The position numbers and the translations under genes were made by a program. From assembly GCA_964631255.1 (NCBI GenBank), contig CAZVWS010000004.1, positions 35,806 to 99,805 of the forward strand: a DNA stretch of 64,000 nt. The letters run 5' to 3'. Each line of letters opens with the position of its first letter. Positions within the stretch are counted from its first letter, which is position 1. Source of the DNA: an uncultured Dysgonomonadaceae bacterium. GTDB taxonomy: Bacteria > Bacteroidota > Bacteroidia > Bacteroidales > Dysgonomonadaceae. Positions 41,909-58,077 of this stretch are shown here, in pieces. Below the pieces are notes generated by a model, which worked only from the letters and a program-made list of their open reading frames with translations, did no database searches and was not told the origin of the DNA.

Positions 41909-42070
41909 AATAATAGCACCATGAGAACGTGTTTTGCGACACGAGATTACAGAAATTTCTTGCAAAAATAGCATAGTTTTCACAAAAAAGGAAAACTGTG
42001 TGGCAAGTTAACAAAAAAATGAGCAAGAAATAGAAATTCAGGACTGAAAATTACTAACTCAATTTTGCAT

Positions 42071-42376
42071 TTATTCGATAACAAGTATCTGTAATTCAAT
42101 TTTTTTAATTGGTTTTTTATCTTTCTCCCATGGTCTTTTTTCGACTAAAACAACCGTTGTTTCGCCCGCAGAAAGCGCTTCAATAGTTACCAAAACGAGA
42201 ATACTTGCACCAATAATTACATCATCGATGCTCTTTTTTTTCTGCCGGTTTTCGAGTGTTACACGCACCATTGTTTCGTCATACGACTCCGCGCTCCACA
42301 AATATCCGGTTGTTGGGTTCGATTGTATCTCGAACGTATATTTTTCATTTTTTTTTAAAGAAATTGATTTTGCCAT
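42071..42376 (-). CDS. Chagasin-family (I42) cysteine peptidase inhibitor, no signal peptide
   Basis: 101 aa with the hallmark NPTTGYLW loop. Confidence 0.8.
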   Translation of the reverse strand: MAKSISLKKNEKYTFEIQSNPTTGYLWSAESYDETMVRVTLENRQKKKSIDDVIIGASILVLVTIEALSAGETTVVLVEKRPWEKDKKPIKKIELQILVIE

Positions 42377-42454
42377 TTAATTGAAGTATTTACATTGTAC
42401 ATTTCCAATCAAAGATACAAAAAAAGCCGATATGAATAATACCGGCATTTTTCA

Positions 42455-43258
42455 CTAATAATCACTCACTTTGCGTATTGTCCAAAAATCGGAACAATAG
42501 TTTCTGTCGCTGATATACTGGTAAGGCATCCAAAAATATCCTTTATCTCCCCAGTTTTTACCCCATGAGTTTCTGACCAGTACCATCTGTTTTTCGTCGT
42601 CGTATCCTACTGCTAAAACAGCATGTCCGCCCAACATCGATTCGGTTTTAATATCGGGCATTGGCATGATTCCGGTTGTAGTAACCTCTTGCGAGTAAAA
42701 ACTCTCGTAAACCGAAAAACCAAAAGCAATTGGAAATCCCTCGGCTAAGCATTGTTTTATACCCATCAATCCGTTTGAAATACGAAAATAGCTGCCAATT
42801 ACGTGATTAAGAGCCGATGTGTAGCACATAACCGGTGGTTTTTTGGTGAATTTTGCAAATGGTTTGGTGCTGGCACTATATCGCCATTCCGATTCGTAAC
42901 AAACACCTTGCTTGCTCAATGACTTGATTCCGTCGCGAAGATATGCGCCACTATCGTAGCTTTCACTACCCATCATCACTCTTTCGTTGTAGTACAAAAA
43001 TAACCTCGACATCCGTCTATTGCGTTTTTTTTGAACTTTTCGTCCATATTCCACGGCTGCATTCAGCGCATTTGCTGTGCAACTTCCCAAATTGCCCTGA
43101 CTAAAAACAGGTGGGCAATTTTTCCTTAAATCTATTTTTGCCGGAAGTGATTTGGCTATTCTCAATGGTGCTACATAAGAATAATCTCTTGCATCGGGTA
43201 TATCGGGGATCCACCCCAATTTTGGCATTTTAATCTTTTTTGGACTATTTGCTTGCAT
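42455..43258 (-). CDS. Papain-like (C1 family) cysteine peptidase, no signal peptide
   Basis: Catalytic motifs QGNLGSCTANA (Cys), GGHAVLAVGYDD (His) and VRNSWGKNWGDKGYFWMPY (Asn/Trp). Confidence 0.85.
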   Translation of the reverse strand: MQANSPKKIKMPKLGWIPDIPDARDYSYVAPLRIAKSLPAKIDLRKNCPPVFSQGNLGSCTANALNAAVEYGRKVQKKRNRRMSRLFLYYNERVMMGSESYDSGAYLRDGIKSLSKQGVCYESEWRYSASTKPFAKFTKKPPVMCYTSALNHVIGSYFRISNGLMGIKQCLAEGFPIAFGFSVYESFYSQEVTTTGIMPMPDIKTESMLGGHAVLAVGYDDEKQMVLVRNSWGKNWGDKGYFWMPYQYISDRNYCSDFWTIRKVSDY

Positions 43259-43355
43259 TGTTGTCTTATTTACATTGATTTTTAGTTTTTAGATAACGAT
43301 ACGTTGCAAAAATATAATTTTATATACGTAGATGTTAGGATTTTTTGCGCATTTT

Positions 43356-43373
43356 ATAGGACAAATTGCGCAT
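43356..43373. repeat. Left arm of 18-bp inverted repeat (ATAGGACAAATTGCGCAT)
   Basis: Its reverse complement occurs at 44191-44208 with one mismatch (17/18). Both arms are flanked by TTTTGCG-containing sequence. Confidence 0.7.
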
Positions 43374-44190
43374 TAACAGTTGCACGAAAAGGATAATAAA
43401 TAACTTTATAACCAGTTATTCATCTATTTGTAAGACAATTATATAATAAAATTATTTATTTGCCAGTAATATTGTATTTTTGATTGAAGATTTTTTCCGA
43501 GATTTTCTTACAATATACTAACTCCTTTCCATCTATGAATCTTTTTCCTTTGGATGAAAAAAACCGATACTAAAATTGAGCTAATGCATATGTATAGTAT
43601 GGAAAAATATTTTCGGAAGTATTAAACTTTATTCGTTAATTACACATGCTATGTAACCGAAAATTAAATTGCAAAAAAAGGAATAGCCTTTATAGAGATA
43701 AGTACTAACAGATAAATTAATAGATAAAAAAAAGACCAAGGTTTTGCTTGATCTTTTCCTAAAACTTAAATCACGCAATTACGCAACAGTTTTTCTATAA
43801 CTGTTCGCTGTGCACTCAGAACACCTAAATCTAAGTTTTAATGTACAAATATAGCTTAAAACTCTGTTTAGTCAAAATAAATTCTAATATTTAACATTAT
43901 ATTAACTTTTTACTCACATTCAAATATTGATAGTTCAGTATCACATTATCATGATTCTAATAATTGTTGAAAAGACAGCCGGTTTATTTAAAAAAACACC
44001 AATAAAAAAAATATTATTACGATAAACACGAGTAATGTCCCCCCTACTGAAAGAATATTTTCTTGAAATTTCGTATAATTTTTAGTAAATACAAAATATT
44101 TGCTTTTTAAACATGGTTAATTTTTGTTATTTCTACTCGTCGGCACCAGGATTTTTTAGTCATTATATGTCAATATATTAGGCTATTTTG

Positions 44191-44208
44191 ATGCGTAATT
44201 TGTCCTAT
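44191..44208. repeat. Right arm of 18-bp inverted repeat (ATGCGTAATTTGTCCTAT)
   Basis: Pairs with 43356-43373. The arms enclose 817 bp of ORF-free AT-rich DNA. Confidence 0.7.
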
Positions 44209-44281
44209 TTTTATGAATGTTAACGCAAAATAATTCTGATATTTTTATTCTCTTTTGGAATAATTAATTAAATAAACATAT

Positions 44282-44289
44282 TATATTTG
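44282..44289 (+). promoter_or_regulatory. Candidate -7 promoter element (TATATTTG) upstream of the paralog operon
   Basis: TAnnTTTG match about 190 nt upstream of ATG 44479, outside the inverted-repeat-bounded segment. The region is AT-rich, so a chance match is possible. Confidence 0.3.
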
Positions 44290-44478
44290 CCATTATAATT
44301 TATCACGGTTCAATAAATGTGATATATGATAAGCAACCCATCTTTACTAGCGCGTACAAAATTGGAAGTAGAAAAATAAAACAACAAAAAAAGAAAGCAA
44401 CGTAAAATATCATTTCATATCAGAATTCTGATATTGGAATAAATAAATATTCATTTTCACCATTAAAAAACAAATATT

Positions 44479-45528
44479 ATGAACTATTTAAACAGCAATG
44501 CTTCAAATATCGCTACAAGCGCGTTGAAAGCAATCCCATTTGGAGATATTATAGGCGGCCCGTTAGAAGCCTGTATTTTGGCTCAAGAGAAGGCTGCAGT
44601 TACCACGGTCAACTTCATAGAGCGTGTAGGTATGCAAAGAAAACCCGTATTTGATGCCACGGGTAATCCGGTTAAAATAAAAAATGAAAACGGTGTTGAG
44701 GAGCAAGTTTTTGAATGGGAAGCTATTTATATATCTTTCCAGTTTATACAAGGCGGACGAATGGTACGACTCAATGTTCCTATGCTCACGGTGGTGCCGG
44801 TACCTTATATAGCAATAAACACGATTGATATCAACTTCAAAGCGAACATTTCAGCTTCGGCTGCCACTTTTGATGAGGAAACAGAAAGTGATTCGAGTAA
44901 TCAAAAAGATTCTCAATTTGCTAGTGCCAGCGAATATGCGAGGCAGAACACCCGTAAAGGAGTAGGATTTTTAGGATTTTATAGAAAAAACAATACTTCT
45001 AGCAGTAGTTCAAGAAACTATTCGCAAAGTAGCATGAGTGCCTCCATATCCAGCAAAAAAGATTCCAAAGGAACAGCCGAATCCAAATATAGTGTAGAAT
45101 ACACCATGGACGTGGCAGTGCACGCATCGCAAGACAGTATGCCGGCCGGTATGGCAAAAATATTAGAACTGATTGGAACGGCAATGGACTTGTGCGATCC
45201 CGATGGCGAATTTGTAGTAAACTCTACACAATTTCGAGTTACAGGAAACGAAAAAGTACAGCTGGAAGCATCTTACAAAACACCTGCCGGTCTGCTAATG
45301 GCAGAAGGTTTTAAATTATACAAATACAATGACTTAAAAGAATTTAATAAAAATGAATTCAATGATAAAGGTTTACCCAAAAATGGTACAGAATTACAGG
45401 ATGGTCGCAAATTAAAAGATAAAAAAACTTATGAATTGGGTGAGGGTTATTATATTCTGCAATCAGACGATAAAACACAGTTTTTGCAATTGGCTGTAGA
45501 AAAAGAAGCTACATCCCAAACCACCTAA
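44479..45528 (+). CDS. Split-core family paralog 1 (DUF2589-like by recollection) with beta-rich C-terminal domain
   Basis: Core blocks IPFGDIIGGPLEACILAQEKAAVTTVNFIERVG, RLNVPMLTVVPVPYIAINTIDINFKANISAS and SKKDSKGTAESKYSVEYTMDVAVHASQDSMPAGMAKILELI. No signal peptide. Confidence 0.8.
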   Translation: MNYLNSNASNIATSALKAIPFGDIIGGPLEACILAQEKAAVTTVNFIERVGMQRKPVFDATGNPVKIKNENGVEEQVFEWEAIYISFQFIQGGRMVRLNVPMLTVVPVPYIAINTIDINFKANISASAATFDEETESDSSNQKDSQFASASEYARQNTRKGVGFLGFYRKNNTSSSSSRNYSQSSMSASISSKKDSKGTAESKYSVEYTMDVAVHASQDSMPAGMAKILELIGTAMDLCDPDGEFVVNSTQFRVTGNEKVQLEASYKTPAGLLMAEGFKLYKYNDLKEFNKNEFNDKGLPKNGTELQDGRKLKDKKTYELGEGYYILQSDDKTQFLQLAVEKEATSQTT

Positions 45529-45656
45529 ATAAATGTACATTGAATTTCAAGTTTTATAGAGTGCATTTCTCTCAATAACCTCCTGATATAGAGCATGAAT
45601 ATAAAGAAACAACAAAATAAGTTGTACAAATAAAGAATATAAAAAAATAAATAATT

Positions 45657-46541
45657 ATGGCATTAGATACATCGGCTTCACAAACCGCTACCAATGCGTT
45701 ACAATCTATCCCTTTTGGTAACATCATTGGCGGACCGCTCAACGCTTGTATCGAAGCACAAGCACAATCGGCTCAGACCACTTGGCGATTTATACAAGAA
45801 GTAGGTCTCAGAAGTGATGAAAACGGCAAAAGAGAAGCCGTGAGCGTTAATTTTGAATATGTACAAGGTGGCAGGAAACTGATGTTGATAGTACCCCTGC
45901 TTACTATTGTTCCTATCCCTTATATTGCAATAGATGAAATTGAAATAAATTTCAAAGCACAAATTTCGGCATCGGCTTCTACCTCGAGCGAGAAAAGTAA
46001 CTCTACCGGAATGGAAGCCGGAGTTTCTGCTTCGGCTCGTTTTGGCGGTTTTCTCAATCACGGAAAGGTAAATATGCATGCCAATTTTTCGAGCAAAAAA
46101 GACTCCAAATCCACACAAGAATCTAAGTATAGTGTAGAATACACCATGGACGTGCGGGTACATGCCATGCAAGATAGTATGCCTGCCGGCATGGCTCGCA
46201 TTTTAGAAATTCTGAACAGTTCGGTAGATTCGGTCAACTCCAAAGGAGAGCTTTATGCAAGCGACAACGTACTGTATCTAACCAAAGACACAAGTGTGGT
46301 AACTGTTGCCTCTTACAAATCTGCAGAAGGACTGCTTTCGCCAAGAGATATTGAAATATTTGATGCCGATGACAAGTCCATTTTAAAATTACCCGATGGA
46401 AAAAATAAAGATGAAAATAAATCGAAAGGCGTAAGTATTAGATTATCTGATTCGGGCGAGAATTTGTTATGCAGCTTTACAAAAAAAGGAGCCTTCTATT
46501 TAAAAGCAAATGAGTGTCAACAGTTAGTAACAGTGATATAA
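45657..46541 (+). CDS. Split-core family paralog 2
   Basis: IPFGNIIGGPLNACIEAQAQSAQTTWRFIQEVG, LIVPLLTIVPIPYIAIDEIEINFKAQISAS and SKKDSKSTQESKYSVEYTMDVRVHAMQDSMPAGMARILEIL. Confidence 0.8.
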   Translation: MALDTSASQTATNALQSIPFGNIIGGPLNACIEAQAQSAQTTWRFIQEVGLRSDENGKREAVSVNFEYVQGGRKLMLIVPLLTIVPIPYIAIDEIEINFKAQISASASTSSEKSNSTGMEAGVSASARFGGFLNHGKVNMHANFSSKKDSKSTQESKYSVEYTMDVRVHAMQDSMPAGMARILEILNSSVDSVNSKGELYASDNVLYLTKDTSVVTVASYKSAEGLLSPRDIEIFDADDKSILKLPDGKNKDENKSKGVSIRLSDSGENLLCSFTKKGAFYLKANECQQLVTVI

Positions 46542-46595
46542 TTTCTGTCAGAACTATATTACCAAGATGTTTTACCTCCAAAAAAATGATGAATC

Positions 46596-47696
46596 ATGAG
46601 CGAAAATCAAACAAATGACTTTTCCCAATTAGATGGTCTGAGTAAAGTGGTTACCAATTCGTTAAGCCAGTTGCCATTTACGCATCTGATAAGCGAACCA
46701 CTAAAAGCGTGTGTGCATGCACAAAACGAAACTACCAAAGCTACATTAGCCTCCATGATGGAAATGGGACTAATTGCAGACAAAAATAAAAACAAAGCTG
46801 CCATTTTTGTCGAATTTGAGTTTATGAGTGGAGGTAGAATTAAAAAAATGTCTGTACCTTTGCTCACTTTAGTCCCGATAAATTTTATTGGAATCAATTC
46901 TGTTACTATCGCCTTTAAAGCAGCAATAAATGCTTCGTCGAAAAATACGTTTGCAGATATTGGAGCCGAAATAGCTAAAGCAAAAAAAGATTCTGCTAAA
47001 AAAGATGAAAGTGAAGGAGGAAGTGGTGGAGAAAATAATAATACAAATGAACCACCAAAAAAAAGTGTTAGGGCAAACGCGAAGAAAAACAAAAGCTCTT
47101 CAGGTGAAGAAACTACTACAGAAGAAAATGATTCAAGCACACCTGACAACCAAACCAGTGGTAGTGATGACAAAGATGGGGATAAAGGTTTCGACTGGGA
47201 TATTTTAAAAAACGTGCCAAAAGTTGTTGAATATGTGATAGATCTTATTCCGTCTAAAAAAGACGAAAAAGCCAAAGACAAGGAAAATGGATCAAATTAT
47301 TCCAATAAAAAAGACTCTACCTCCACTCGCGAATCGAAATACAGTATAGAGACAACTGTAGATTTTTCGCTCTCTGCCGGACCAACCGATATGCCGGGTG
47401 GCATGGCACGAATGCTCGAAATCCTGAATTCCACGATTGAGGTTTTTGACCCCGATGGCGAACTATTGATAACGGAATACAAAATTGGCAAAGGAGAAAA
47501 AGTGTACATTGAATACAAAAACGAGAAAGGGCTGTACGAGATAGAAGAGATAAAAATAAACAACAGCCAAGACGTAAGTGTACCAAAGGAAAAAATTGAA
47601 GAAATGGGAAATGGTATCTTGGTACAGTTGGATGATGCAGGCAATTACACGGTAACAGCAAAGAAAAAGAAAGAAGTTATTATTGTAACTGAATGA
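46596..47696 (+). CDS. Split-core family paralog 3 with ~120-aa charged low-complexity insertion
   Basis: LPFTHLISEPLKACVHAQNETTKATLASMMEMG, MSVPLLTLVPINFIGINSVTIAFKAAINAS and NKKDSTSTRESKYSIETTVDFSLSAGPTDMPGGMARMLEIL. The linker is rich in K/E/D/S/N/G/T. Confidence 0.8.
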   Translation: MSENQTNDFSQLDGLSKVVTNSLSQLPFTHLISEPLKACVHAQNETTKATLASMMEMGLIADKNKNKAAIFVEFEFMSGGRIKKMSVPLLTLVPINFIGINSVTIAFKAAINASSKNTFADIGAEIAKAKKDSAKKDESEGGSGGENNNTNEPPKKSVRANAKKNKSSSGEETTTEENDSSTPDNQTSGSDDKDGDKGFDWDILKNVPKVVEYVIDLIPSKKDEKAKDKENGSNYSNKKDSTSTRESKYSIETTVDFSLSAGPTDMPGGMARMLEILNSTIEVFDPDGELLITEYKIGKGEKVYIEYKNEKGLYEIEEIKINNSQDVSVPKEKIEEMGNGILVQLDDAGNYTVTAKKKKEVIIVTE

Positions 47697-47709
47697 TAAT
47701 AAAATAACG

Positions 47710-48483
47710 ATGACAAATTTAAAACAAATACTCACATCGGTACTACACGATGTTGTTCAAGCCCAACACGAAGCAAACCTATTTGCTGTAAACTTGGCGG
47801 CAGAATACGCGCAACAAAACAAGGGACTAACCATAACACCTCCGTCTGTTGCTGTAGGCGAATTGTCTATCAACTTACGCTACGCTGTGCAAGAAGGGGA
47901 AGAAATTAACGAAAAGAAAACTCTGAACCAAAAAGAAAAGGCAAATTGGTTAAAAAAACTATCCAAACAATTGGCTAAACTCATGATCAGAAAACTGGTT
48001 GAAGAGCTGCAAGCATCTAAAGTACCTTATGAAGATAACGGGTTTTCTTTTGTTAATGACTTAGGCGATAATGAAAGTCTGCAAGACTATATCGCCCAAC
48101 GAACTCTTACCTCGTTAGAATTACTCAAAGATCGGATTATTTTAGAAAACTCGGCTTTTGATATTGAATTAATTTCGGATCAAGTATTATATGTAGGCGA
48201 ACAGTATCTGCTCAAGCATTCTGATATTATCGGTTTATTTAACCTTCCGGAAGGTTCTGCGCTGTTTAACAGAATAAAAAAGGTTCTGGATCATGAAATA
48301 AATGATAGTGTAAAACAAATTGTGGACGAAATTTCGGTAGAAACAATGTTTGATTCACATAGCTATGCATCTCTGAATATTACGGTGAATGCCGATGAAT
48401 TAAAAAAACTCCCCGCAGAAAGCATACAGCAATTGAGTATCAAAATCGGTTCTAAAACAATAAATGAGGTTACTAATTTGTAA
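47710..48483 (+). CDS. Divergent helical member related to the split-core family
   Basis: The N-terminal ILTSVLHDVVQAQHEANLFAVNLAAEY, then PPSVAVGELSINLRYAV and the C-terminal SLNITVNADELKKLPAESIQQL echo the three core blocks. The central part is helical. Confidence 0.65.
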   Translation: MTNLKQILTSVLHDVVQAQHEANLFAVNLAAEYAQQNKGLTITPPSVAVGELSINLRYAVQEGEEINEKKTLNQKEKANWLKKLSKQLAKLMIRKLVEELQASKVPYEDNGFSFVNDLGDNESLQDYIAQRTLTSLELLKDRIILENSAFDIELISDQVLYVGEQYLLKHSDIIGLFNLPEGSALFNRIKKVLDHEINDSVKQIVDEISVETMFDSHSYASLNITVNADELKKLPAESIQQLSIKIGSKTINEVTNL

Positions 48484-48496
48484 AAATTAAGCTTTT

Positions 48497-49435
48497 ATGC
48501 CAAATATAATTTCCAACGAAGCAAATCTTTCCAAGTTGCTGAGCGATGCTTACACCTCCACTCTCAATGCTGAGTTGCAGGGACAAAAACAACACTTAGA
48601 AATATTAAACCAAATAAAAGATTTGCCTCCATTTTCTTTCTCCTTTACCGATGAAAATGGGAACAAAACAGTGTTACAAGTGCCGGTAATAACATTGATT
48701 CCCCTTTCTATGTTGCATATCGAGGAAGCAGAATTTAATTACTCCGTGTCGCTATCATACAATAGTACATCACAAAGCGAGACTCCAATATTAGATAAGG
48801 GAATTCCCAATTTTACAAAAGCATTTATTTACAATAATGGTGCTACTAAAATGATTAATAATAGAAAAGTATATGAAGGAGAATATACAGAATTAGAAGA
48901 AATCGAAATTTTTTTACCAATCACCGGTAGTCAAATTCCAATTTTTAAAATAATAGAAATAGGAGGTGAACCAGTCTATTATCACTCGAAGATATCAAAT
49001 GTAAAACAAAAAATTAAATTGCTTTCATTCGGAAGACCTCACGTAGCTCTTTGGGAATTAAAAAATCCGGATCTAACCAAATATAAATTTTTGATTAGAT
49101 TTCAACTATCTGGAGTGGTTGAATATGAAAATAAGAAGTACATACAAGACAACAAAGGAGAAAAAACCATCGAAATAAAAAAAGAAATATTCAATAACAG
49201 AGACGGGAAAAGATTCGCGTTGAAAAAACACATAGCTCGAGAATTTCTTCACAGATCTCAATATACTGAAATAAACAAGAGCAATACAAACTTTATGGTA
49301 ACGTTAGATAACGAAAACCAAATGAATACAAACCTGACAGTAAAGGTAAAATTGAAACAAAGTAGCATCCCTACTGGTATGTATGAAATTTTGCAAACTG
49401 CCGGTAATAATATAAAAATTATTCAAGGCCGCTAA
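48497..49435 (+). CDS. Divergent split-core family member
   Basis: LSKLLSDAYTSTLNAELQGQKQHLEILNQI, VLQVPVITLIPLSMLHIEEAEFNYSVSLS and NLTVKVKLKQSSIPTGMYEILQTAG match the three core blocks. Confidence 0.7.
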   Translation: MPNIISNEANLSKLLSDAYTSTLNAELQGQKQHLEILNQIKDLPPFSFSFTDENGNKTVLQVPVITLIPLSMLHIEEAEFNYSVSLSYNSTSQSETPILDKGIPNFTKAFIYNNGATKMINNRKVYEGEYTELEEIEIFLPITGSQIPIFKIIEIGGEPVYYHSKISNVKQKIKLLSFGRPHVALWELKNPDLTKYKFLIRFQLSGVVEYENKKYIQDNKGEKTIEIKKEIFNNRDGKRFALKKHIAREFLHRSQYTEINKSNTNFMVTLDNENQMNTNLTVKVKLKQSSIPTGMYEILQTAGNNIKIIQGR

Positions 49436-49480
49436 ATTCTATTATTCTCAAATTCAGATTAAAAAAAGAAATAACAGAAA

Positions 49481-49705
49481 ATGAATCCAACAGAACAAAA
49501 AAAACCGGGACTCGCGTGTCCAAAATGCAATCGTTTCATCGAAACGACTATCGGAGATCTTATTTCAAAATCATATATTGAATGTTCTCACTGCAGATTG
49601 CGCCTCAACATCAACAAGCAAGAGTCGAAAAAAGCACTTGATATATTGCAAGATGTGGAAAAAGCCCGACAAAATTTGGACAAAGCAAGCAATTTTAAAC
49701 GATAA
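49481..49705 (+). CDS. Small zinc-ribbon protein
   Basis: 74 aa with two CxxC pairs (CPKC ... CSHC) and a basic helical tail. Confidence 0.6.
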   Translation: MNPTEQKKPGLACPKCNRFIETTIGDLISKSYIECSHCRLRLNINKQESKKALDILQDVEKARQNLDKASNFKR

Positions 49706-49732
49706 TCACCTTTTCAAAACATATTATTCATC

Positions 49733-50944
49733 ATGCAACACAATGTAAATGACGACATGGCGCGCATCCCTTTTAGTGATTTGATTGGCAGACCGCTAAG
49801 AGCATGTATCGAAGCACAAGAAAAAGCATCCATGTGCACTTGGGACTATATACAGTCTATTGGTTTGCAGGATGTTACTGGCTCTGATAATCCACAAAAG
49901 GAATTGCTGATGATTACCTTTTCATTTATCAGTGAGGGTGGAATGGCTTCGTTGCGCCTGCCTTTACTCTCCGTAGTTCCTATTCCTTATTTTTCTATCG
50001 ACACATTGGATATCAGCTTCCGGGCAAATATTAAATCGGTTCAAGTAACCGAAGAAACCGGCGAAACCAGCCTGAAAGGAATTAATAATATTACCGGAAG
50101 ACGTACAGAAAATATTTTAGCAAGCTATTCGATAAGCAAAGATTCAGAGTCAATAGAAAGCAGCGAATACAATGTAGAAAACGCCATTGACGTAAGAATA
50201 CGTGCCACGCAAGATCACATGCCCGCCGGATTGTCAAAAGTTTTGGCATTTATGGAACAAGCCATACAGGTAAAAACACCACAAATAGAACTAAAAGACA
50301 CAAACATGGCAACTGCCATTCGCGATTTTAGGTATAAATTTTCCAGTCTGCCCAATTCTAATCTCTCTCCTGTTTTAACCTCTATCCCCGGTTTGGTGCC
50401 TGACAAGTCCGATCTTCACATGAAAGAAGGTGTTATAGATAGAAGTTATTTGCAAAGCATCGAGGTTTTGAGTTTTTTATATTCCGATTGTCCTTTTAAC
50501 AACATTGACGATTTGGCTAATATGGATAACCTTACGGCTTTTATTTGTGATAAAATTGTGATTTCTTCTATTTACAGTTTTTCAATGCAAAATCTTTCGT
50601 CGGTGGCTCTATTATCGTTAAACAGCAATGGTGATGCACTTCACGAAAAACAACATATACCAAATTTTGAGTTTAAGTGGCTCCATAAAATTCAAACTCT
50701 ATTCCTGAGCAATTTTCAACAACTTGCACTGAATCAAGTTATTTTGAGCAATTCATTTGATTTAGTTTCACTTGTTATATATAACTGTCATATCGAAGTG
50801 GTGGATATATCCGTTTCAAAAAACATACAAGTTTTAAAAATAGAATCAGGAAATGTAAAAGAGCTAATAGTTTGGCGCGGTTTTTCGACTAATAAATTGC
50901 AAATCTGCAAATTACCCAATGATATTATCATACAAGAAATTTAA
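49733..50944 (+). CDS. Split-core family paralog with leucine-rich-repeat-like C-terminal half
   Basis: IPFSDLIGRPLRACIEAQEKASMCTWDYIQSIG, LRLPLLSVVPIPYFSIDTLDISFRANI and SEYNVENAIDVRIRATQDHMPAGLSKVLAFM. The C-terminal ~200 aa carries LxxLxL-type repeats. Confidence 0.8.
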   Translation: MQHNVNDDMARIPFSDLIGRPLRACIEAQEKASMCTWDYIQSIGLQDVTGSDNPQKELLMITFSFISEGGMASLRLPLLSVVPIPYFSIDTLDISFRANIKSVQVTEETGETSLKGINNITGRRTENILASYSISKDSESIESSEYNVENAIDVRIRATQDHMPAGLSKVLAFMEQAIQVKTPQIELKDTNMATAIRDFRYKFSSLPNSNLSPVLTSIPGLVPDKSDLHMKEGVIDRSYLQSIEVLSFLYSDCPFNNIDDLANMDNLTAFICDKIVISSIYSFSMQNLSSVALLSLNSNGDALHEKQHIPNFEFKWLHKIQTLFLSNFQQLALNQVILSNSFDLVSLVIYNCHIEVVDISVSKNIQVLKIESGNVKELIVWRGFSTNKLQICKLPNDIIIQEI

Positions 50945-50958
50945 CCGGTAAATAAATT

Positions 50959-52122
50959 ATGGCTAAGAAAAAGCAGTACAATAATTTACGTGATGAACCC
51001 ACTGAGCATTTACGGAACATTCCTTTCAGTACTATGTTGGGCGGTCCTGTTGAAGCATGCATTCAAGCACAAGTAGATGCTGCAAACAGCACACGCAGAT
51101 ACATAGAATCGGTCTGTTTTGAAACCGATTATTATGGTCGAAAAAAATCGGTAATGCTGAGTTTCGATTATGTATTTGAGGGTAAATATATGCGACTTAC
51201 CATGCCCCTGATAGCTATAGTACCGGTTCCATTTTTTTGTGTGGATAGCTTAGATATCGAATTTAACGCGAATGTTACCGGATACGAAAACAACAGTATA
51301 CAATGTAAATTTGCACGTATAAATAGAGGAAATTCAGAAAAAAATGATGGAACAAGTACTTTCCACTATTCTAACGAAAATGTGCTAAACGTTCGATTAC
51401 ATGCTTCACAAGACAACATGCCGGGAGGGTTAGGACGTGTATTAAATATTCTGGAGCAATACATGCATATAGAAGAACCGGTAACACCTAGCACTCCAAT
51501 AAAAATTGAATTAACCCCTGAAAAGGTAAACTTAAAAGTTGGAAAGCGAGTAACCTTAAAAGCAAGCACCGATACTGATGTTTCATTAAAATGGACCACT
51601 GACAAACCGGATTTGATAAGAGTATCAAAAAAAGGAAGAGTAACTGCTCTAAAAGAAGGGATAGCCAACGTAATTGTTAGCCATGGTTCTGATTATGCTG
51701 CGGTAAAAATTATCATCACGTCAAATGATGATTTGCCGACTACTTCATTTACATCCGGCAGTGGTCAATCAACATCTCACTACGGTATTGAAATAATTCC
51801 CGATTATTCTTCGACTACAACTACAAGTTCAACTACGGCATCAACCACTATTTCAAGTTCAAGTTCATCTTCAAGTAGTAGCCAATCACATTATGGACTT
51901 GATTTGTTGGCAGATTATTCTACAGAAACCTCAGCCAATAGTTATACAGCACATAGTAGTAGTCCGGCACATTATGGCATCCGGTTGATACAAGATAGTA
52001 ATACTCCACGTAAAAATGTATCCAAATTAAAAAAACAAGCAGAAGCCAAAAAAAATAATCAAAAGAAGAAAATTTCAATCGAAGAAAACATCCGAACAAC
52101 CAGACCTCGCCGGAAAAAATAA
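50959..52122 (+). CDS. Split-core family paralog with Big_2 Ig-like domain, Ser/Thr-rich HYG repeats and basic tail
   Basis: IPFSTMLGGPVEACIQAQVDAANSTRRYIESV, LTMPLIAIVPVPFFCVDSLDIEFNANV and NVLNVRLHASQDNMPGGLGRVLNIL. The Big_2-like segment is LKVGKRVTLKASTDTDVSLKWTTDKPDLIRVSKKGRVTALKEGIANVIV. Confidence 0.8.
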   Translation: MAKKKQYNNLRDEPTEHLRNIPFSTMLGGPVEACIQAQVDAANSTRRYIESVCFETDYYGRKKSVMLSFDYVFEGKYMRLTMPLIAIVPVPFFCVDSLDIEFNANVTGYENNSIQCKFARINRGNSEKNDGTSTFHYSNENVLNVRLHASQDNMPGGLGRVLNILEQYMHIEEPVTPSTPIKIELTPEKVNLKVGKRVTLKASTDTDVSLKWTTDKPDLIRVSKKGRVTALKEGIANVIVSHGSDYAAVKIIITSNDDLPTTSFTSGSGQSTSHYGIEIIPDYSSTTTTSSTTASTTISSSSSSSSSSQSHYGLDLLADYSTETSANSYTAHSSSPAHYGIRLIQDSNTPRKNVSKLKKQAEAKKNNQKKKISIEENIRTTRPRRKK

Positions 52123-52139
52123 TCACAACAAAACATTCC

Positions 52140-52991
52140 ATGTTAGCGATACACACCACAGATAGCAGACCCGCCGCACAGCGTGGGGAAAACTTTTTCC
52201 AAGCCGATTTTGAATTGCTTTGCATGGTATTGTCTGCTCTGAAATGGCGTGAAAAAAACGGTAAAATAAAACTTTATACCGATTCCGCCGCTATGCGCTT
52301 CTACGAAAAAGAGGTATTGCAAGAAATATGGGATGGCGGTATTGATACGCACAGTTTGCAATCGGACAAACACGATATAGATTATCGCATCTTTTGGGCA
52401 GCGGGCAAACTGATTGCTTTGAGCAACGAAACTTCGCCCGTTGCAACAATAGATACCGACATGATTCTTTGGAACGAACTGGGTTATTGGAACGAAAAGC
52501 CAAATTCGTGTATCTGCATCCACAAAGAAGAGTTGTATGAAGGTGTATATTTGGACCCGGTATTCTTGAAAACGGCAGAAGATTATCGGTTCGACGAATC
52601 ATGGGATTGGACAGCCTTGCCATGCAACGCGGCATTCGTATATCACGGCAACCAACAACTACTCCATTATTATTTGGAAGAAGCGTTCCGATTTATGCAC
52701 AAAAACAGAGAAACTCCCGAAGAGATGGTTAGCCAAATGGTGTTTGCCGAACAACGTTTGTTGGGCATTGCTGCCAAAAAACTGAATTTGGAAGTAGATG
52801 CGTTCTATCGGGTAGATGAACTTGCTTCTCAAAAAAATTTTACCCACTTCTGGGGATATAAAGCGGAACTGCGAAAGGACAAAAAATTGGCCGAAACGAT
52901 TTGTAAACAGAGTGTAGAGCGACTGCTTCATGATTTTGCAACGCGACACCCTTTTTTGTTAAAAATGCCGGTTGTGCAGCGATATATGTAA
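52140..52991 (+). CDS. Hypothetical cytoplasmic protein with DxD-like motif (possible nucleotide-sugar transferase-like fold; I recall it as DUF6734-like, unverified)
   Basis: 283 aa, 17 nt after the previous gene. The IDTDMILW segment resembles a DxD motif. No TM segment or signal peptide. Confidence 0.5.
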   Translation: MLAIHTTDSRPAAQRGENFFQADFELLCMVLSALKWREKNGKIKLYTDSAAMRFYEKEVLQEIWDGGIDTHSLQSDKHDIDYRIFWAAGKLIALSNETSPVATIDTDMILWNELGYWNEKPNSCICIHKEELYEGVYLDPVFLKTAEDYRFDESWDWTALPCNAAFVYHGNQQLLHYYLEEAFRFMHKNRETPEEMVSQMVFAEQRLLGIAAKKLNLEVDAFYRVDELASQKNFTHFWGYKAELRKDKKLAETICKQSVERLLHDFATRHPFLLKMPVVQRYM

Positions 52992-53015
52992 TATACTTAA
53001 GAGCAGGTCGAAACT

Positions 53016-55625
53016 CTAATATCTATAACTCACCGTTAACATTATTGCACGCGGACGGATATTATACATATAATCGAAGCGGTCTAAGCCATTGTAAATA
53101 GAGTAAGAGTAATGCCGTTCATTAAACAAGTTATTTGCTGATAGGTTAAACCCCATCTGAGCGTACTTAAAAGTAATTCCTATATCAGCAAAAAATATTT
53201 TTACCGAACTATTTTCTCCAATTTCATTGTACGAATGCTCCAGACGACCATTAAATTGCCACTTTTTACCCAACAAATAGAATGCCGACAACTGCTGTGT
53301 TATTTGCCACATAGAGGATCGAAAAACGTTGGTGTTTTGAATGATCTCCGAGATTTGATTATTTGCCATGGCTTGATAAGTAACTGAACTTGCATCTGAT
53401 AATTTAATGTTTAGCTTGGGTAATAATGCCCATCCCGAAGCTTTATAAGGATACAAGACACCTTGTTATAAACGCTTCCCATTCATACTATTATAACTAA
53501 CATTGAATGAAATATTTGTTCTGATTTCGGAGAAATATTTTCCCGCATAAAACGTCCACAAGAGCATATCAGAACAAGTTGAAAACTCCTTGTTTCCACT
53601 TATCGATTCATTTCCTACAAAGCGTTGTGTGTTTACCGTGTTTCTTGCCGAAGGAGAATATGACAACGATGTGTTTAAGAAAAATATTGTTAAAGGATTA
53701 CGATATTGCACACTCGTGTTGAAAGATTGTCGTTTTATCTGCGATAAAATGTTACTCCGTTTACTGAAATTACGATACGAAGACATAAAATAAACATCAG
53801 CAAGTTCAATAAAATCGCCGATAGATTGTGTATAGCGATATCCCACACGAGCCGTGAGCATGGGAGAAAACCGATAATTGATACGAAAAGACGGAATTGG
53901 GAAAAAGTAAGAACGGTTATTGGAATTAGACATATCTATATAATGCTTCTTGAAAGCAACATCTGCATTGATAATTAGCTTATTTCCCCGATACATATAC
54001 GTAGGTACCAACTCCAAAAGAAAATAATCAGCGTGGAAATTACCGTGAACACTATCTGTAAAAACCGGATGCGTTAACTCTGATTGGTATTTATGTAACG
54101 ATGCTTCCATTGCACCTTTTATAACAAAACTAGAATTGCGCCAACCGAAACCGTAATACGTGCTGTTTCGGGTATAAAAGCCAGAAAGGTTGACCTGTTG
54201 TAATTGCTGAACTTCTACTGTATCGACATTCACTTCCAACCACTGGGGCTGTGCAGAATAAAGAGTGAAAGAGGTAATATCCCACAAATGTTTACCCCAT
54301 TTTTTCACAAACTTTAAATCGTTTTTTACCAATTGCGCAGGTAAATTGAAATGTTGAGATACTCCCATATCATTTACAATTACCGATGCTGTAGTTTTAT
54401 TCCAATTACTGTTCCACGCAAGTGCATTTTTCAAATAGTAATTGGGATTATTATCTGTAAATGTTGCAACCGCATCAACAATATTCACTCGTTGCGAAAG
54501 CTCACTTGTTTCTTTGATATGCAGAGAGCCATCCGGCAATAAGTATTCGCTATTGCGTGATATATTTTCTTTTATTGCATCATTGATATATTGAATATTG
54601 AGTCTTAATTGACTGTGTTCGCCGGTTTTCCAAAGGTTGTTTGCTGATACCGCGTGTGAATTATTAAACAAGTATCTCTTTTTCTCCAATGGTGGATAAT
54701 TGAATAAACGAGCATCTAATAGGTTTTTTTGCGAGAATCCGGATACATCTTCCAACTCGCCCACGGACATTGTTTGAGCCGTAAGTTCAGTTGCGATATC
54801 TTTCGTCGCATTGTTGGTTTTGTACATCACGATAGATTGTAGTTTTCGACCGGCACTCATAGCAAATGCTTCTGCAAGCCACAATAATTCATCGGCATAG
54901 CCGCCACCCAGCGTTACATTTCCAACCGGACGGGATATTTTGTCCTTTTTCAACCGCAGGTTTACAGCTGCTTTATCGCTGGCTACTTCATCTTTTAAAG
55001 TTTGTATGGGTTGATGGTTTTCGATGATTTCGATATTTTGCACCGCGTCTACCGGCACATTGTTGGTGGCGATACCGTAACGACGCTCCAACAAATCCAA
55101 TCCCTCGATATAAAATTTATTGATAGCTTCACCTTGGTATTTTATGCTTCCACTTTCGCTCACTTCAACACCCGGAAGTTTTCTAAGCAAATCGCCGATG
55201 GATTTGTCTTCCAAACTTTTAAAAGCATCAACACTATACACCAATGTGTCCTCTCTACTCCACATAGGACGTGATTTTACAACCACCTCGCGCAACTCTA
55301 TTTCGCCAAACGACATTTCGATAAACAGTTGTTGCGTTTCATTCTCAATGCTTAGTTTCGCCTCCTCATAACCCAATAAACGAGCTTGTAAAACAAGTTG
55401 TTGCGTTTCGTTTTTCACATTTATCCGGAAACTTCCATCTTGTTTTGTTATGGTATAGGCAACGGTTTCTCCATCGTTATCAAGCAAGGTAATAACTGCG
55501 CCCGTAATGGGTTTTTTATCTTCTTTATCCGTTACCCATCCGCTTATGGCAGTCTGAGCTTGAGCACAAAAAGTACTTACAGCAAAAAGAAATAAAAGAA
55601 CCCAACTTTTTTTCATGTCAATCAC
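53016..55625 (-). pseudogene. CarboxypepD_reg + plug + beta-barrel outer-membrane receptor (TonB-dependent-receptor-like) interrupted by one in-frame TAA
   Basis: ORFs 53466-55625 and 53016-53456 are in the same frame. Read-through gives ...NGKRL*QGVLYPYKASGW.... The C-terminal fragment ends in VSYRY, a typical OMP terminus. Confidence 0.7.
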
Positions 55626-56484
55626 TTAATTCTATTGGATTGTATGGACGAGCCTTACTTGCCGATACCGGTAATGAGGATTGTATCATACCCGAATTTT
55701 CTATTTTTCCACTTGGGTTTTCATGGTATTTGCGTTGCGCATCTAAAAAGCGTTTTTTAGTAATATTAAAGCGCGATTTACTTTCTTGAAAATAAATAGG
55801 ATCGCTCCATGTAGGTTTCTCAATACCGATACATTCAAACAAATAGTGCCCTTGATCGTCTTCAATCTTCAAAATTAGTCCGGGCAAACCTCCAAACTTC
55901 CACGGTCCATTATCAGTTGGTATCTCGGGTGTGTACCACGCTGTGTAATTACGTCCAAAAATTGAAGACGTAGCTTTTTTGCACAGATAACCGCAAACAG
56001 TAGTTGTATCGCTACTCAGTGTCCATTCGTATGTCGGTAATTCTTCTTCATACAAATAGCTATCAAAAGGTATACGGTCGATGGTAGTTATCTTCCCTTC
56101 GGGATAGTTTTTAAAAATACTTATCGCTATTGGACGCACTCCTCTACCTAATATTTTGTTCATCGCATCTATACCATCCATTTGCTGTTTGGCGTATTCT
56201 TGCATTAACGAATCGGATAGATATTTTTGTCGGTCAAAAAACTTACTGACAGTCTTTCCCACCTGCAAAAGCATTTCATTCTCGGTTTTTTGGGTGGGGT
56301 TTTCAGCATCTTTAACCCAAAGCATTTTATAATAACAACGAAACAAGGTATTATCTAAAGTATCTTGTTGAGCAGATTTAATGGGAGTTGAATTATAGCC
56401 GGGTCCTACCTCAATTCTGGGTTGAGACAATACATTTATGCAATAAATGATTAGTAGTAATATAAAGAAAAATAATCGTCTCAT
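55618..56484 (-). CDS. GLPGLI family protein
   Basis: Signal peptide and the family-defining GGLPGLILKIED motif. Overlaps the start of the receptor gene by 8 nt. Confidence 0.85.
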   Translation of the reverse strand: MRRLFFFILLLIIYCINVLSQPRIEVGPGYNSTPIKSAQQDTLDNTLFRCYYKMLWVKDAENPTQKTENEMLLQVGKTVSKFFDRQKYLSDSLMQEYAKQQMDGIDAMNKILGRGVRPIAISIFKNYPEGKITTIDRIPFDSYLYEEELPTYEWTLSSDTTTVCGYLCKKATSSIFGRNYTAWYTPEIPTDNGPWKFGGLPGLILKIEDDQGHYLFECIGIEKPTWSDPIYFQESKSRFNITKKRFLDAQRKYHENPSGKIENSGMIQSSLPVSASKARPYNPIELSD

Positions 56485-56709
56485 TGTTATATTTTTTTAA
56501 TGATAATATGCATTTCCTGTATTTTTTACAGAAAGCAAATGTATGAAAAAAAGCAACATAATGATAACTAATTATAGGTAAATGTATTTCAAAGACAAAT
56601 TTTCCATCTGTAATATCTCATTTTATTAACTTTTAATAGTCTCTTTGTTTGCCCATAACCCGATTATAACTACTTTTACGGTTGCATTTATAAAAACAAG
56701 TGATTTAAG

Positions 56710-58077
56710 ATGAAATTTCAGGTAAAAGTATTTATCTTTTTAGCGTTTGCCGCCATTTTTGCACAAAACGCCGTTTCGCAAAACAATATTATCGACGAAA
56801 TTGTGTGGGTTGTTGGAGATGAGGCAATTTTAAAATCGGAGGTAGAGGAGTTTCGTAAAGAAATTCTGATGCAAAACCAACGAATAGATGGCGACCCCTA
56901 TTGCTTCATTCCGGAGCAAATGGCAGTAAACAAACTTTTTCTCGACCAAGCCAAATTAGACAGTATCCAGGTGCAAGAATCAAACGTGAACCGCATGTTA
57001 GAATATTACATCAACGAATATGTATCGTCTATCGGGTCGGAAGCCAAATTGGAAGAGTATTTCGGCAAAAGCATCCGAAAAATTCGCGACGATTTGCGTA
57101 CACAACTTCGCGAACAACAACTCATTCAAGGCGTACAAGAAAAACATTTCGGAAATATAACGCTCACGCCATCCGAAATAAGAAAATTCTACAACTCGAT
57201 GCCACAAGATAGTTTACCATTTATCCCCACAACGGTAGAAGTACAGATTATTACCCGAGAACCCGAAATTCCATTGACGGAAATTGACGCCGTGAAAGCC
57301 CGACTTCGCGAATTTACCGAAGAGATAAACAGCGGCGAGCGTAGTTTCTCTACTTTGGCACTACTCTACTCCGAAGACCCATCGGCAGTGAAAGGCGGCG
57401 AACTGGGATTCATGAACAAAGCCGGATTTGTGCCCGAATTTTCTAACGTGGCTTTTGCCTTGACCGACCCCAAAAAAGTGTCGAACGTGGTAGAAACGGA
57501 ATACGGTTTTCACATCATTCAACTGATAGAACGCAGGGGCGATATGGCAAATTTCAGACACATATTGCTCAAACCCAAAGTGTCGCAAGTACAGTTAGAC
57601 TCGGCAATGGTGAGATTAGACTCTATACGCAGCGGCATCGATAGCAAAAAGATAACGTTTGACGATGCAGCCTTGTTCCTCTCTGCCGACAAAGATACGC
57701 GCAACAACAAAGGTATCATGGTCAATCTTCGCCCAAATTCTGACAATGCCGGAACACCGCGTTTTGAACTGAACGAACTCAACCAAGACATTGCCAAAAT
57801 TGCCGGCGATATGCAAGTTGGCGAAGTGTCCAAACCATTTGTTATGCGCAACGAAAAAGGGAAACAAGTAGTGGCAATTGTGAAAATATCCAGTAGAAAC
57901 GAAGGACACAAAGCCAATATCAACAACGATTATCAAATCATCAAATCGATGGCAGAAAGTGCCAAACGACAAGAATTGATGGACAAATGGTTGTTGAAAA
58001 AAATAGAAACGACATACGTGCGCATCGATCCAAACTGGAAAGGATGCGATTTTAAATACAAAGGTTGGATAAAATAA
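56710..58077 (+). CDS. SurA-like periplasmic chaperone / parvulin peptidyl-prolyl isomerase
   Basis: Signal peptide, SurA_N-like region, and parvulin motif GGELGFMNKAGFVPEF...EYGFHIIQLIERRG. Confidence 0.85.
   Translation: MKFQVKVFIFLAFAAIFAQNAVSQNNIIDEIVWVVGDEAILKSEVEEFRKEILMQNQRIDGDPYCFIPEQMAVNKLFLDQAKLDSIQVQESNVNRMLEYYINEYVSSIGSEAKLEEYFGKSIRKIRDDLRTQLREQQLIQGVQEKHFGNITLTPSEIRKFYNSMPQDSLPFIPTTVEVQIITREPEIPLTEIDAVKARLREFTEEINSGERSFSTLALLYSEDPSAVKGGELGFMNKAGFVPEFSNVAFALTDPKKVSNVVETEYGFHIIQLIERRGDMANFRHILLKPKVSQVQLDSAMVRLDSIRSGIDSKKITFDDAALFLSADKDTRNNKGIMVNLRPNSDNAGTPRFELNELNQDIAKIAGDMQVGEVSKPFVMRNEKGKQVVAIVKISSRNEGHKANINNDYQIIKSMAESAKRQELMDKWLLKKIETTYVRIDPNWKGCDFKYKGWIK

Follow-up and report, generated by a model that had tools for sequence, protein, structure and literature searches.

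The 18-bp inverted repeat in the longest ORF-free spacer of this uncultured Dysgonomonadaceae genome probably consists of regulator operator units at two divergent promoters and not of recombination sites, as judged from the sequences of the locus and its relatives. The spacer lies in the window, which is the whole 64,000-nucleotide stretch of DNA that was analyzed, and its position and neighbors are listed in Table 1. It had been described as ORF-free and AT-rich, and indeed no ORF of at least 60 aa was present at positions 43259–44478, where the GC content was 0.23–0.28. It had also been called the longest gene-free stretch in the window. When the entire 2.26-Mb assembly (100 contigs, 40.8% GC, 96% complete) was scanned, its 1220 bp proved to be the longest gap without ORFs of at least 60 aa in the whole assembly, the runner-up being 662 bp.

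The left arm (ATAGGACAAATTGCGCAT, 43356–43373) and the right arm (ATGCGTAATTTGTCCTAT, 44191–44208) form an inverted match of 17/18 positions with 817 bp between them, and both the coordinates and the match of the preliminary description were reproduced. A repeat search lengthened the pair to 21 nt at 90% identity (19/21; 43356–43376 and 44188–44208). When up to three mismatches were allowed, the 18-mer was present in the 64-kb window only at the two arms. Dinucleotide shuffles of the same search gave a mean of 0.10 copies, and none of 100 shuffles contained two, indicating that the chance expectation is well below one, as first estimated, even at three mismatches. The TTTTGCG-type sequence noticed near both arms was found at 43341–43351 (TTTTTTGCGCA), within unit 1 of the module described below, and at 44224–44230 (CGCAAAA). 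Outside the described features, the spacer also contains two other stretches, of approximately 340 bp (43384–43720) and 270 bp (43877–44146).

Table 1. Features of the divergent spacer and its flanks (positions in the window).
Feature	Position	Strand	Remarks
Chagasin-type I42 inhibitor gene	42071–42376	minus	Left flank
Papain-family C1 peptidase gene	42455–43258	minus	Left flank
Divergent ORF-free spacer, 25% GC	43259–44478		Flanked by the C1 peptidase gene and the first DUF2589 gene
Candidate −7 box TATTTTTG (TAnnTTTG) of the C1 peptidase/chagasin operon	43307–43314	minus	Plus-strand reading CAAAAATA
Operator unit 1 (putative) TAGGATTTTTTGCGCA	43336–43351	plus	21 nt from the −7 box; PWM 23.0 bits
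Operator unit 2 (putative) TAGGACAAATTGCGCA	43357–43372	plus	Left arm of the preliminary description; PWM 26.4 bits
Candidate small RNA gene	43720–43876	minus	Promoter, terminator, and fold
Weak unit-like sequence CAGGATTTTTTAGTCATT	44147–44164	plus	Head-to-head with the right arm; R1 E-value 0.051; PWM 10.3 bits
Right arm, single high-scoring operator unit (putative) TAGGACAAATTACGCATC	44191–44208	minus	PWM 23.3 bits
Candidate DUF2589-operon promoter	44254–44289	plus	−33 TTTG 44254–44257, 24 nt, −7 TATATTTG 44282–44289
Seven tandem DUF2589 paralogs	44479–52122	plus	Right flank; first gene 44479–45528

On the left, the arm turned out to belong to a larger arrangement. The minus strand from the peptidase start (43258) to 43845 contained a sole consensus −7 box, at 43307–43314, and no −33 TTTG was present ahead of it. 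The box is followed by 21 nt, unit 1, 5 nt, unit 2, and a tail (GCATTAACA), which together form a module of approximately 85 bp. Units 1 and 2 are 16-bp direct repeats of TAGGA-N4-TTGCGCA, 21 bp from start to start (16 + 5 + 16). The center of unit 1 falls at approximately −43 relative to the predicted start, and the conserved tail TTAACA behind unit 2 extends that unit to 43357–43378. Further copies of the module were found in the same genome (C64:9267–9354) and at two sites of a congener (G002:C25 and G002:C3). The alignment of the four copies (A1) was ungapped, and CAAAnnTA, the 21-nt gap, both TAGGA...GCA cores, and the GCATTAACA tail were invariant.

From the four-copy alignment we built a sequence-only model, R1, which detected one or two strong module copies in each of the three genomes of the genus (the present genome, G000; G001, with C50 and C38; and G002) and likewise in several other genera of the family (G013, G015, G016, and G017). 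No inverted partner was found beside the other module copies, either in the genus or in the family genera. Considering that it recurs elsewhere without an inverted partner, the left arm can be assigned to a conserved promoter-plus-upstream-site module and is not a switch-specific repeat. With the proximal unit at about −43 and a promoter without −33, the module resembles a class II promoter that depends on an activator. Other readings of the module were rejected by inspection. When TAGGAC...TTGC was taken as the GG-N10-GC of a sigma-54 promoter, the spacing was 3 nt too short; for a rightward promoter, the distance from TTTG to the −7-like 8-mer was 13 nt instead of 19–21 nt, and the 8-mer lacked TA.

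The genes downstream of the module were then compared among the genomes. C1 peptidase and chagasin genes follow it here and in G001:C38, where the gene order is swapped, and S8 subtilase genes follow it in G001:C50 and G002:C25. A DUF805 gene was found behind the module at C64 of this genome, a gene for an HU-HIG DNA-binding protein in G016, G017, and G018, and a gene for an SPFH-domain protein in G013. In G015, a DUF2589 gene (Pfam E-value 1e-26) lies directly downstream of a full module. Among 78 DUF2589 loci in other Bacteroidales, none carried the module, so that its link to DUF2589 rests on the present locus and one other genome, and the module as a general feature of DUF2589 loci is ruled out.

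A regulator gene was repeatedly found beside the module. In G016, G013, and G018, the gene whose end immediately precedes the module, and which is read in the same direction, codes for a hybrid sensor kinase/response regulator that carries an AraC-type domain at its C-terminus. Of the module copies in G017, one lies ahead of a stand-alone AraC-domain gene and another behind a histidine-kinase ORF; at G002:C68, a weak module lies behind a regulator paralog. The order of regulator, module, and target gene was seen in G013, G016, G017, and G018, and weakly at G002:C68. The strong modules and the regulator genes of G001 and G002 are on separate contigs. This genome has one close regulator homologue (C57:8846–11704, 952 aa). 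Its N-terminus is lipoprotein-like, and the protein has TPR repeats, a single transmembrane segment, and HisKA, HATPase_c, Response_reg, and HTH_18 domains. Contig C57 shares exactly 55 bp at its end with the reverse complement of the C64 end, indicating that the regulator gene precedes, by approximately 250 bp and in the same orientation, the C64 module and the DUF805 gene.

These comparisons agree with what is expected of a tandem operator. Two direct sites of approximately 16 bp, approximately 21 bp apart, occur ungapped in all four genus-level copies. As in a regulon, the motif lies upstream of genes in related genomes (G000, G001, G002, G013, and G015–G017), and it stands beside a gene for an AraC-type HTH regulator in G000, G013, G016, G017, and G018.

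For the right arm, a PWM was derived from 13 units with the right arm excluded and scored on approximately 4.5 million 18-mers of the genome. The right arm ranked third genome-wide with 23.3 bits; the other four of the top five places were taken by the four canonical units, and the best remaining site outside the modules reached 18.3 bits. The PWM and copy searches revealed three near-identical copies of the 18-mer in the genome, two in canonical modules and one at the right arm. Other genomic copies had been named as a possible sign of an invertible system, and a third copy does exist (C64:9325–9342), but it belongs to a direct-repeat operator by the regulator gene and not to a second inverted pair.

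The right arm is oriented toward the DUF2589 operon, as canonical units face their promoters, and the −7 box of that operon follows 73 nt downstream, compared with a canonical distance of 42 nt. This box (44282–44289) is the only TAnnTTTG on the plus strand from 43483 to the ATG at 44479, and the predicted leader is approximately 185 nt. With filters off, R1 matched 44186–44290 on the minus strand as the second-best site of the region (11.1 bits, E-value 5e-4 in a 1.7-kb search), a match that was not significant at genome scale. The box and the arm, the latter as unit 2, were aligned, for which insertions of 22 and 8 nt were needed. A full second tandem module on the right was rejected, as the partner aligned by R1 (44224–44239) was at PWM background with −1.8 bits. 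The weak unit-like sequence at 44147–44164 reached a PWM level that is found at approximately 0.07 sites per kb in the genome. With no tandem partner that beats the background, the right arm is best regarded as one strong putative operator unit standing alone.

The unit is asymmetric and bipartite, with TAGGA and TTGCGCA approximately one helical turn apart. The two-HTH domain of AraC/XylS proteins contacts bipartite sites approximately one helical turn apart. We propose that both arms are copies of an asymmetric operator unit of 16–18 bp, TAGGA-N4-TTG(C/A)GCA, which would be read by the AraC-type DNA-binding domain of the membrane-bound hybrid two-component regulator encoded at C57:8846–11704. 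Two units 21 bp apart would put the two domains of a dimer on the same DNA face. Since the left units have this spacing and stand 21 nt from a −7 box without −33, a bound dimer would occupy approximately −43 and −64, where it would activate the C1 peptidase/chagasin operon. At the right unit, which faces the opposite way toward the DUF2589 −7 box 73 nt off, the same regulator may also act. The inverted repeat would then be the appearance of two back-to-back promoters sharing one operator type, which implies ordinary gene regulation and no flippable switch. Binding, activation, the transcription start sites, and the role of the right-hand unit are what we infer from architecture, conservation, and regulator adjacency.

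Much of the spacer has no counterpart in the closest relatives. The DUF2589 array is absent from the two congeners G001 and G002, where the neighbors of the module are a subtilase gene on one side and a SurA-like PPIase gene on the other. A conserved stretch of 110 bp ahead of the congener PPIase gene corresponds to window positions 56611–56720, indicating that approximately 13.1 kb (about 43461–56611) occupies the position of approximately 85 bp in G002. Besides the seven DUF2589 genes, a DUF6734 gene, and three genes on the minus strand, this block includes the right arm, the candidate sRNA gene, and the greater part of the spacer; no integrase was found in it. The block is absent from two congeners among three genomes compared, and gain here or loss there would both fit. 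The spacer had been suggested to be a silenced, horizontally acquired boundary, and of this suggestion the accessory-block boundary stood, given that most of the spacer lies in the 13-kb block without a counterpart in the two congeners. At the 78 DUF2589 loci of other Bacteroidales, the gaps upstream of the arrays were mostly 100–700 bp, so the long gap here is a local feature and not a family trait.

It may be asked whether the right arm functions at all, or whether only the left tandem module does. In one version, the arm would be a stray or duplicated unit 2, brought or made when the 13-kb DUF2589 block came here, and would not regulate DUF2589. Such a relic would be expected to lack a proper tandem partner, as the right arm does, and the distance of 73 nt instead of 42 nt to the −7 box, the position of the arm inside a block missing from the congeners, and the absence of the module from DUF2589 loci elsewhere would all suit it. 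However, drift in non-coding DNA of 25% GC is unlikely to keep a 17/18 match to a constrained unit, and the orientation of the arm to the DUF2589 promoter is the functional one. In G015, moreover, a full module stands right ahead of a DUF2589 gene, and a weak second unit lies 27 nt from the right arm here; both speak against a relic, which we consider unlikely but worth keeping in mind. It is barely conceivable that the segment is a MITE with terminal inverted repeats or the chromosomal replication origin, although the repeats have TTTT on both outer sides and the DNA is gene-free and AT-rich, with divergent genes and a local GC-skew minimum. A MITE was rejected, for the spacer interior is single-copy in the genome and absent from 40 relatives, a plasmid collection, and the JGI metagenome contigs, and what would be the left terminus occurs as native promoter sequence in genomes that lack the insert. 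The oriC reading was likewise rejected: no DnaA box was found in the spacer, from which TTATCCACA was absent at up to one mismatch, and the cumulative skew of C4 keeps falling across the site, with no switch in the contig-wide skew.

Invertons of Bacteroidales, such as the capsular polysaccharide and fimbrial switches and PhaseFinder-type elements, have inverted repeats of approximately 18–21 bp around a non-coding AT-rich segment. The preliminary description had proposed an invertible phase-variation segment at this locus, and the 817 bp might be a true inverton whose recombinase is encoded elsewhere in the genome. The segment is bounded by a significant inverted repeat of that size (17/18; 19/21 when extended), is AT-rich and non-coding, and lies upstream of a multi-gene surface- or structure-type operon, and Bacteroidales often use invertons. 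Nevertheless, it is larger than the classical ones, and its left arm belongs to a conserved, non-inverting operator module that occurs at loci without an inverted partner. The −7 boxes of both flanking operons (43314–43307 and 44282–44289) lie outside the arms, and the only full consensus promoter inside the segment (43876–43846, minus strand) is followed by its own terminator (43760–43727) and does not read out into a flanking gene, so that inversion would switch nothing obvious.

The genome was also searched for recombinases. No match to the serine recombinases (Resolvase, PF00239), to which an Mpi-type enzyme would belong, was found in the 96%-complete assembly. Five matches to the tyrosine recombinases (PF00589) were found, all on other contigs and none on the 107-kb contig C4; these five genes would be the candidates for a distant recombinase. 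The earlier observation that the window has no recombinase gene holds for the entire contig C4. Furthermore, six independent Logan assemblies (ERR14137403, ERR13731212, SRR8925794, SRR8925816, SRR8925818, and SRR8925825) were compared over 42455–45528, with a short contig of 42455–44626 for SRR8925825. All were colinear with the window at 99.8–100% identity and had identical arms, although contigs show the majority form, may hide a minority orientation, and here come from nearly identical strains. None of the six was broken at the arms, and all had the reference orientation. The left junction had no match in either orientation among the JGI metagenome contigs. An invertible element is thus unsupported by the module, the promoter positions, the colinear assemblies, and the recombinase search, and we regard it, including low-frequency inversion by a recombinase acting in trans, as very improbable.

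The promoter inside the segment belongs to a candidate sRNA gene and is of the textbook Bacteroidetes type. Its −33 TTTG (43876–43873) is followed by a 19-nt gap and the −7 box TATATTTG (43853–43846), and approximately 85 nt past this box a 14-pair hairpin (43760–43727) precedes a U run. The predicted transcript of approximately 120 nt (about 43840–43720) would form a closing stem of 13 bp, a pair of inner hairpins, and the terminator, with an MFE of −33.4 kcal/mol and a z score of −3.8; none of 200 shuffles folded equally well. No ORF was found in the candidate gene, an Rfam search over 42000–46000 with E-values up to 1 gave no family match, and no homologue was found in 40 relatives or elsewhere in the genome. 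The element is therefore a candidate for a species-specific sRNA. Its duplex energy with the DUF2589 leader was no better than that of shuffled controls, and that with the peptidase leader was marginally better than the shuffles, which yielded no usable target.

AraC loops DNA via I1 and O2. In a similar way, a dimer or higher oligomer of the regulator could bridge the left module and the right arm, looping approximately 830 bp of AT-rich DNA and coupling or repressing the divergent operons. Strong identical units stand at both ends of this flexible AT-rich DNA, and regulators of this family are dimers whose two DNA-binding domains are attached by flexible linkers (AraC, HTCS; PMC11253607). 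On the other hand, the left module alone gives a dimer two adjacent sites, the regulator is membrane-anchored, and the module at all other loci has no distal site. We judge such a loop to be improbable. Of the original suggestion of operator sites for a dimeric, looping regulator, the operator part is upheld by the conserved units and the linked AraC-type regulator, and the looping part gained no evidence. If a loop did form, it would be an AraC-style loop approximately four times the I1–O2 size of araBAD, made by an HTCS outside carbohydrate metabolism. A loop containing the sRNA gene would let one sensor jointly control the peptidase/inhibitor pair, a species-specific sRNA, and an acquired array of seven DUF2589 paralogs, to which we give an equally low probability.

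We return to the preferred reading, that the arms are operator units at two divergent promoters. Class II activation by AraC/XylS proteins is exemplified by araBAD, with I1–I2 and the distal O2, and by XylS at Pm. The sites at the present locus are likewise asymmetric, bipartite, and approximately 16–17 bp long, suited to a two-HTH domain, and are repeated in tandem at a distance of 21 bp, the proximal site overlapping the −35/−33 position. As in AraC, there is a distal single half-site, which the AraC system can use for looping. Unlike the soluble, ligand-binding AraC, the present regulator is a hybrid kinase/regulator bound to the membrane; the distal site stands at 830 bp compared with 210 bp, and the promoter is of the Bacteroidetes TAnnTTTG type.

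Predicted operators of Bacteroides HTCSs are direct repeats with a 21-bp periodicity, and those of the mannan HTCSs are pairs of 16-bp sites around a 5-bp spacer (Ravcheev et al. 2013, PMC3878776). Exactly the same 21-bp geometry, with two direct sites on the same face, is found here. The regulator resembles the HTCSs in being a single polypeptide with HisKA, HATPase, REC, and AraC-type HTH_18 domains, and the operator, as in these systems, lies beside the regulator gene and ahead of a few further operons. In contrast to the glycan HTCSs, the sensor has an N-terminal TPR part with a lipoprotein-like signal and no periplasmic beta-propeller. The targets also differ, being peptidases (C1, S8), HU-HIG, DUF805, and possibly DUF2589 instead of polysaccharide utilization loci, and an extra inverted single unit lies 811 bp away. 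In the Porphyromonas-like setting, GppX of Porphyromonas gingivalis (PGN_1768) is likewise a single-polypeptide sensor kinase and response regulator. This hybrid two-component protein was once linked to gingipain activity, but the reported protease link is disputed, as gppX mutants in later work had no gingipain or T9SS defect, and no operator is described for GppX in that work (PMC6590471). From its sequence architecture, the present feature fits well with a tandem-repeat operator of the HTCS/AraC type, with a TPR-sensor regulator, peptidase targets, and an extra inverted unit facing the neighboring operon.

These results indicate that a non-coding inverted repeat in Bacteroidales need not mean an inverton. 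At other loci, one can likewise check whether the arm of a repeat forms part of a conserved direct-repeat operator that occurs elsewhere unpartnered. To our knowledge, no DNA target has been described for the TPR-sensor class of hybrid regulators in Porphyromonas-like bacteria. The present locus offers a concrete, testable operator, namely two copies of TAGGA-N4-TTGCGCA that are spaced by 21 bp and stand 21 nt from a −7 box. In addition, it points to a candidate sRNA that is unannotated and sets an uncharacterized DUF2589 array beside a defined regulatory input. The TPR-sensor hybrid regulator is found outside polysaccharide loci and appears to control peptidases.

The module, a predicted promoter unit with a -7 box and, upstream of it, two 16-bp direct repeats (units 1 and 2), was compared with its copies in related genomes. 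Both congeners, G002 and G001, kept the orthologous module and, with it, a peptidase-type leader segment of approximately 40 nt that contains the 'gcttgCAT' start context. The gene downstream, about 300 nt further on, encoded an S8 subtilase, and no C1 peptidase was found behind the module at either locus. At these loci the predicted promoter was preserved and its downstream protease gene was exchanged for another. At another locus of G001, both units of the module were identical (TAGGACAAATCACGCAT), and the genes that followed were chagasin and then a C1 peptidase, the reverse of the order of the peptidase-chagasin pair in the window.

A further copy in G002 carried a third unit, TAGGACAAATCAAGCATCAAAA, in direct orientation and 26 nt beyond unit 2. 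Its tail, GCATCAAAA, was identical to that of the right arm, the single inverted operator-like unit facing the DUF2589 operon in the window, and unlike the unit 2 tail, GCATTAACA. In the source genome (G000), the ends of contigs C57 and C64 could be joined because they overlapped by exactly 55 bp. The joined sequence encoded a 952-aa hybrid regulator (TPR-HisKA-HATPase-REC-AraC), which is therefore located directly upstream of the second module copy and a DUF805 gene.

Compared with G002, in which only about 85 bp separated the module from the SurA-like gene, the window contained a block of 13.1 kb comprising most of the ORF-free spacer, seven DUF2589 genes, one DUF6734 gene, and three genes on the minus strand, among them those for CarboxypepD_reg and Porph_ging proteins. 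No integrase gene lay in the block, and it was not bounded by obvious repeats. Within the spacer, a candidate small RNA gene had consensus -33/-7 boxes with a gap of 19 nt; the predicted transcript was strongly structured (z -3.8) and ended at an intrinsic terminator of 14 pairs. The candidate had no Rfam match, and no homologue was found in relatives. Inside the predicted DUF2589 leader, 45 nt from the ATG, lay a perfect 18-bp palindrome, ATATCAGAATTCTGATAT, half of which, AATTCTGATAT, also occurred 185 bp upstream, at a position immediately downstream of the right arm. The palindrome may form a hairpin in the leader, or it may be an operator bound by some other dimeric factor.

Features in the window and module loci in related genomes
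Feature	Location	Coordinates	Strand	Basis
13.1-kb block	window	~43461-56611
Candidate small RNA gene, ~120 nt	window	43720-43876	minus	promoter, fold, terminator
Palindrome half	window	44232-44242
Palindrome	window	44417-44434
Module before S8 subtilase (L002)	G002:C25	1480-1620
Module before S8 subtilase (L104)	G001:C50
Module before chagasin (L133)	G001:C38	2466-4069
Module with third unit (L009)	G002:C3	1500-1575
Module before DUF2589 gene (L106)	G015:C32	558-1579

In a different genus of the same family, a DUF2589 gene directly followed a full module. This locus is the sole independent link found between the predicted operator and the DUF2589 family.
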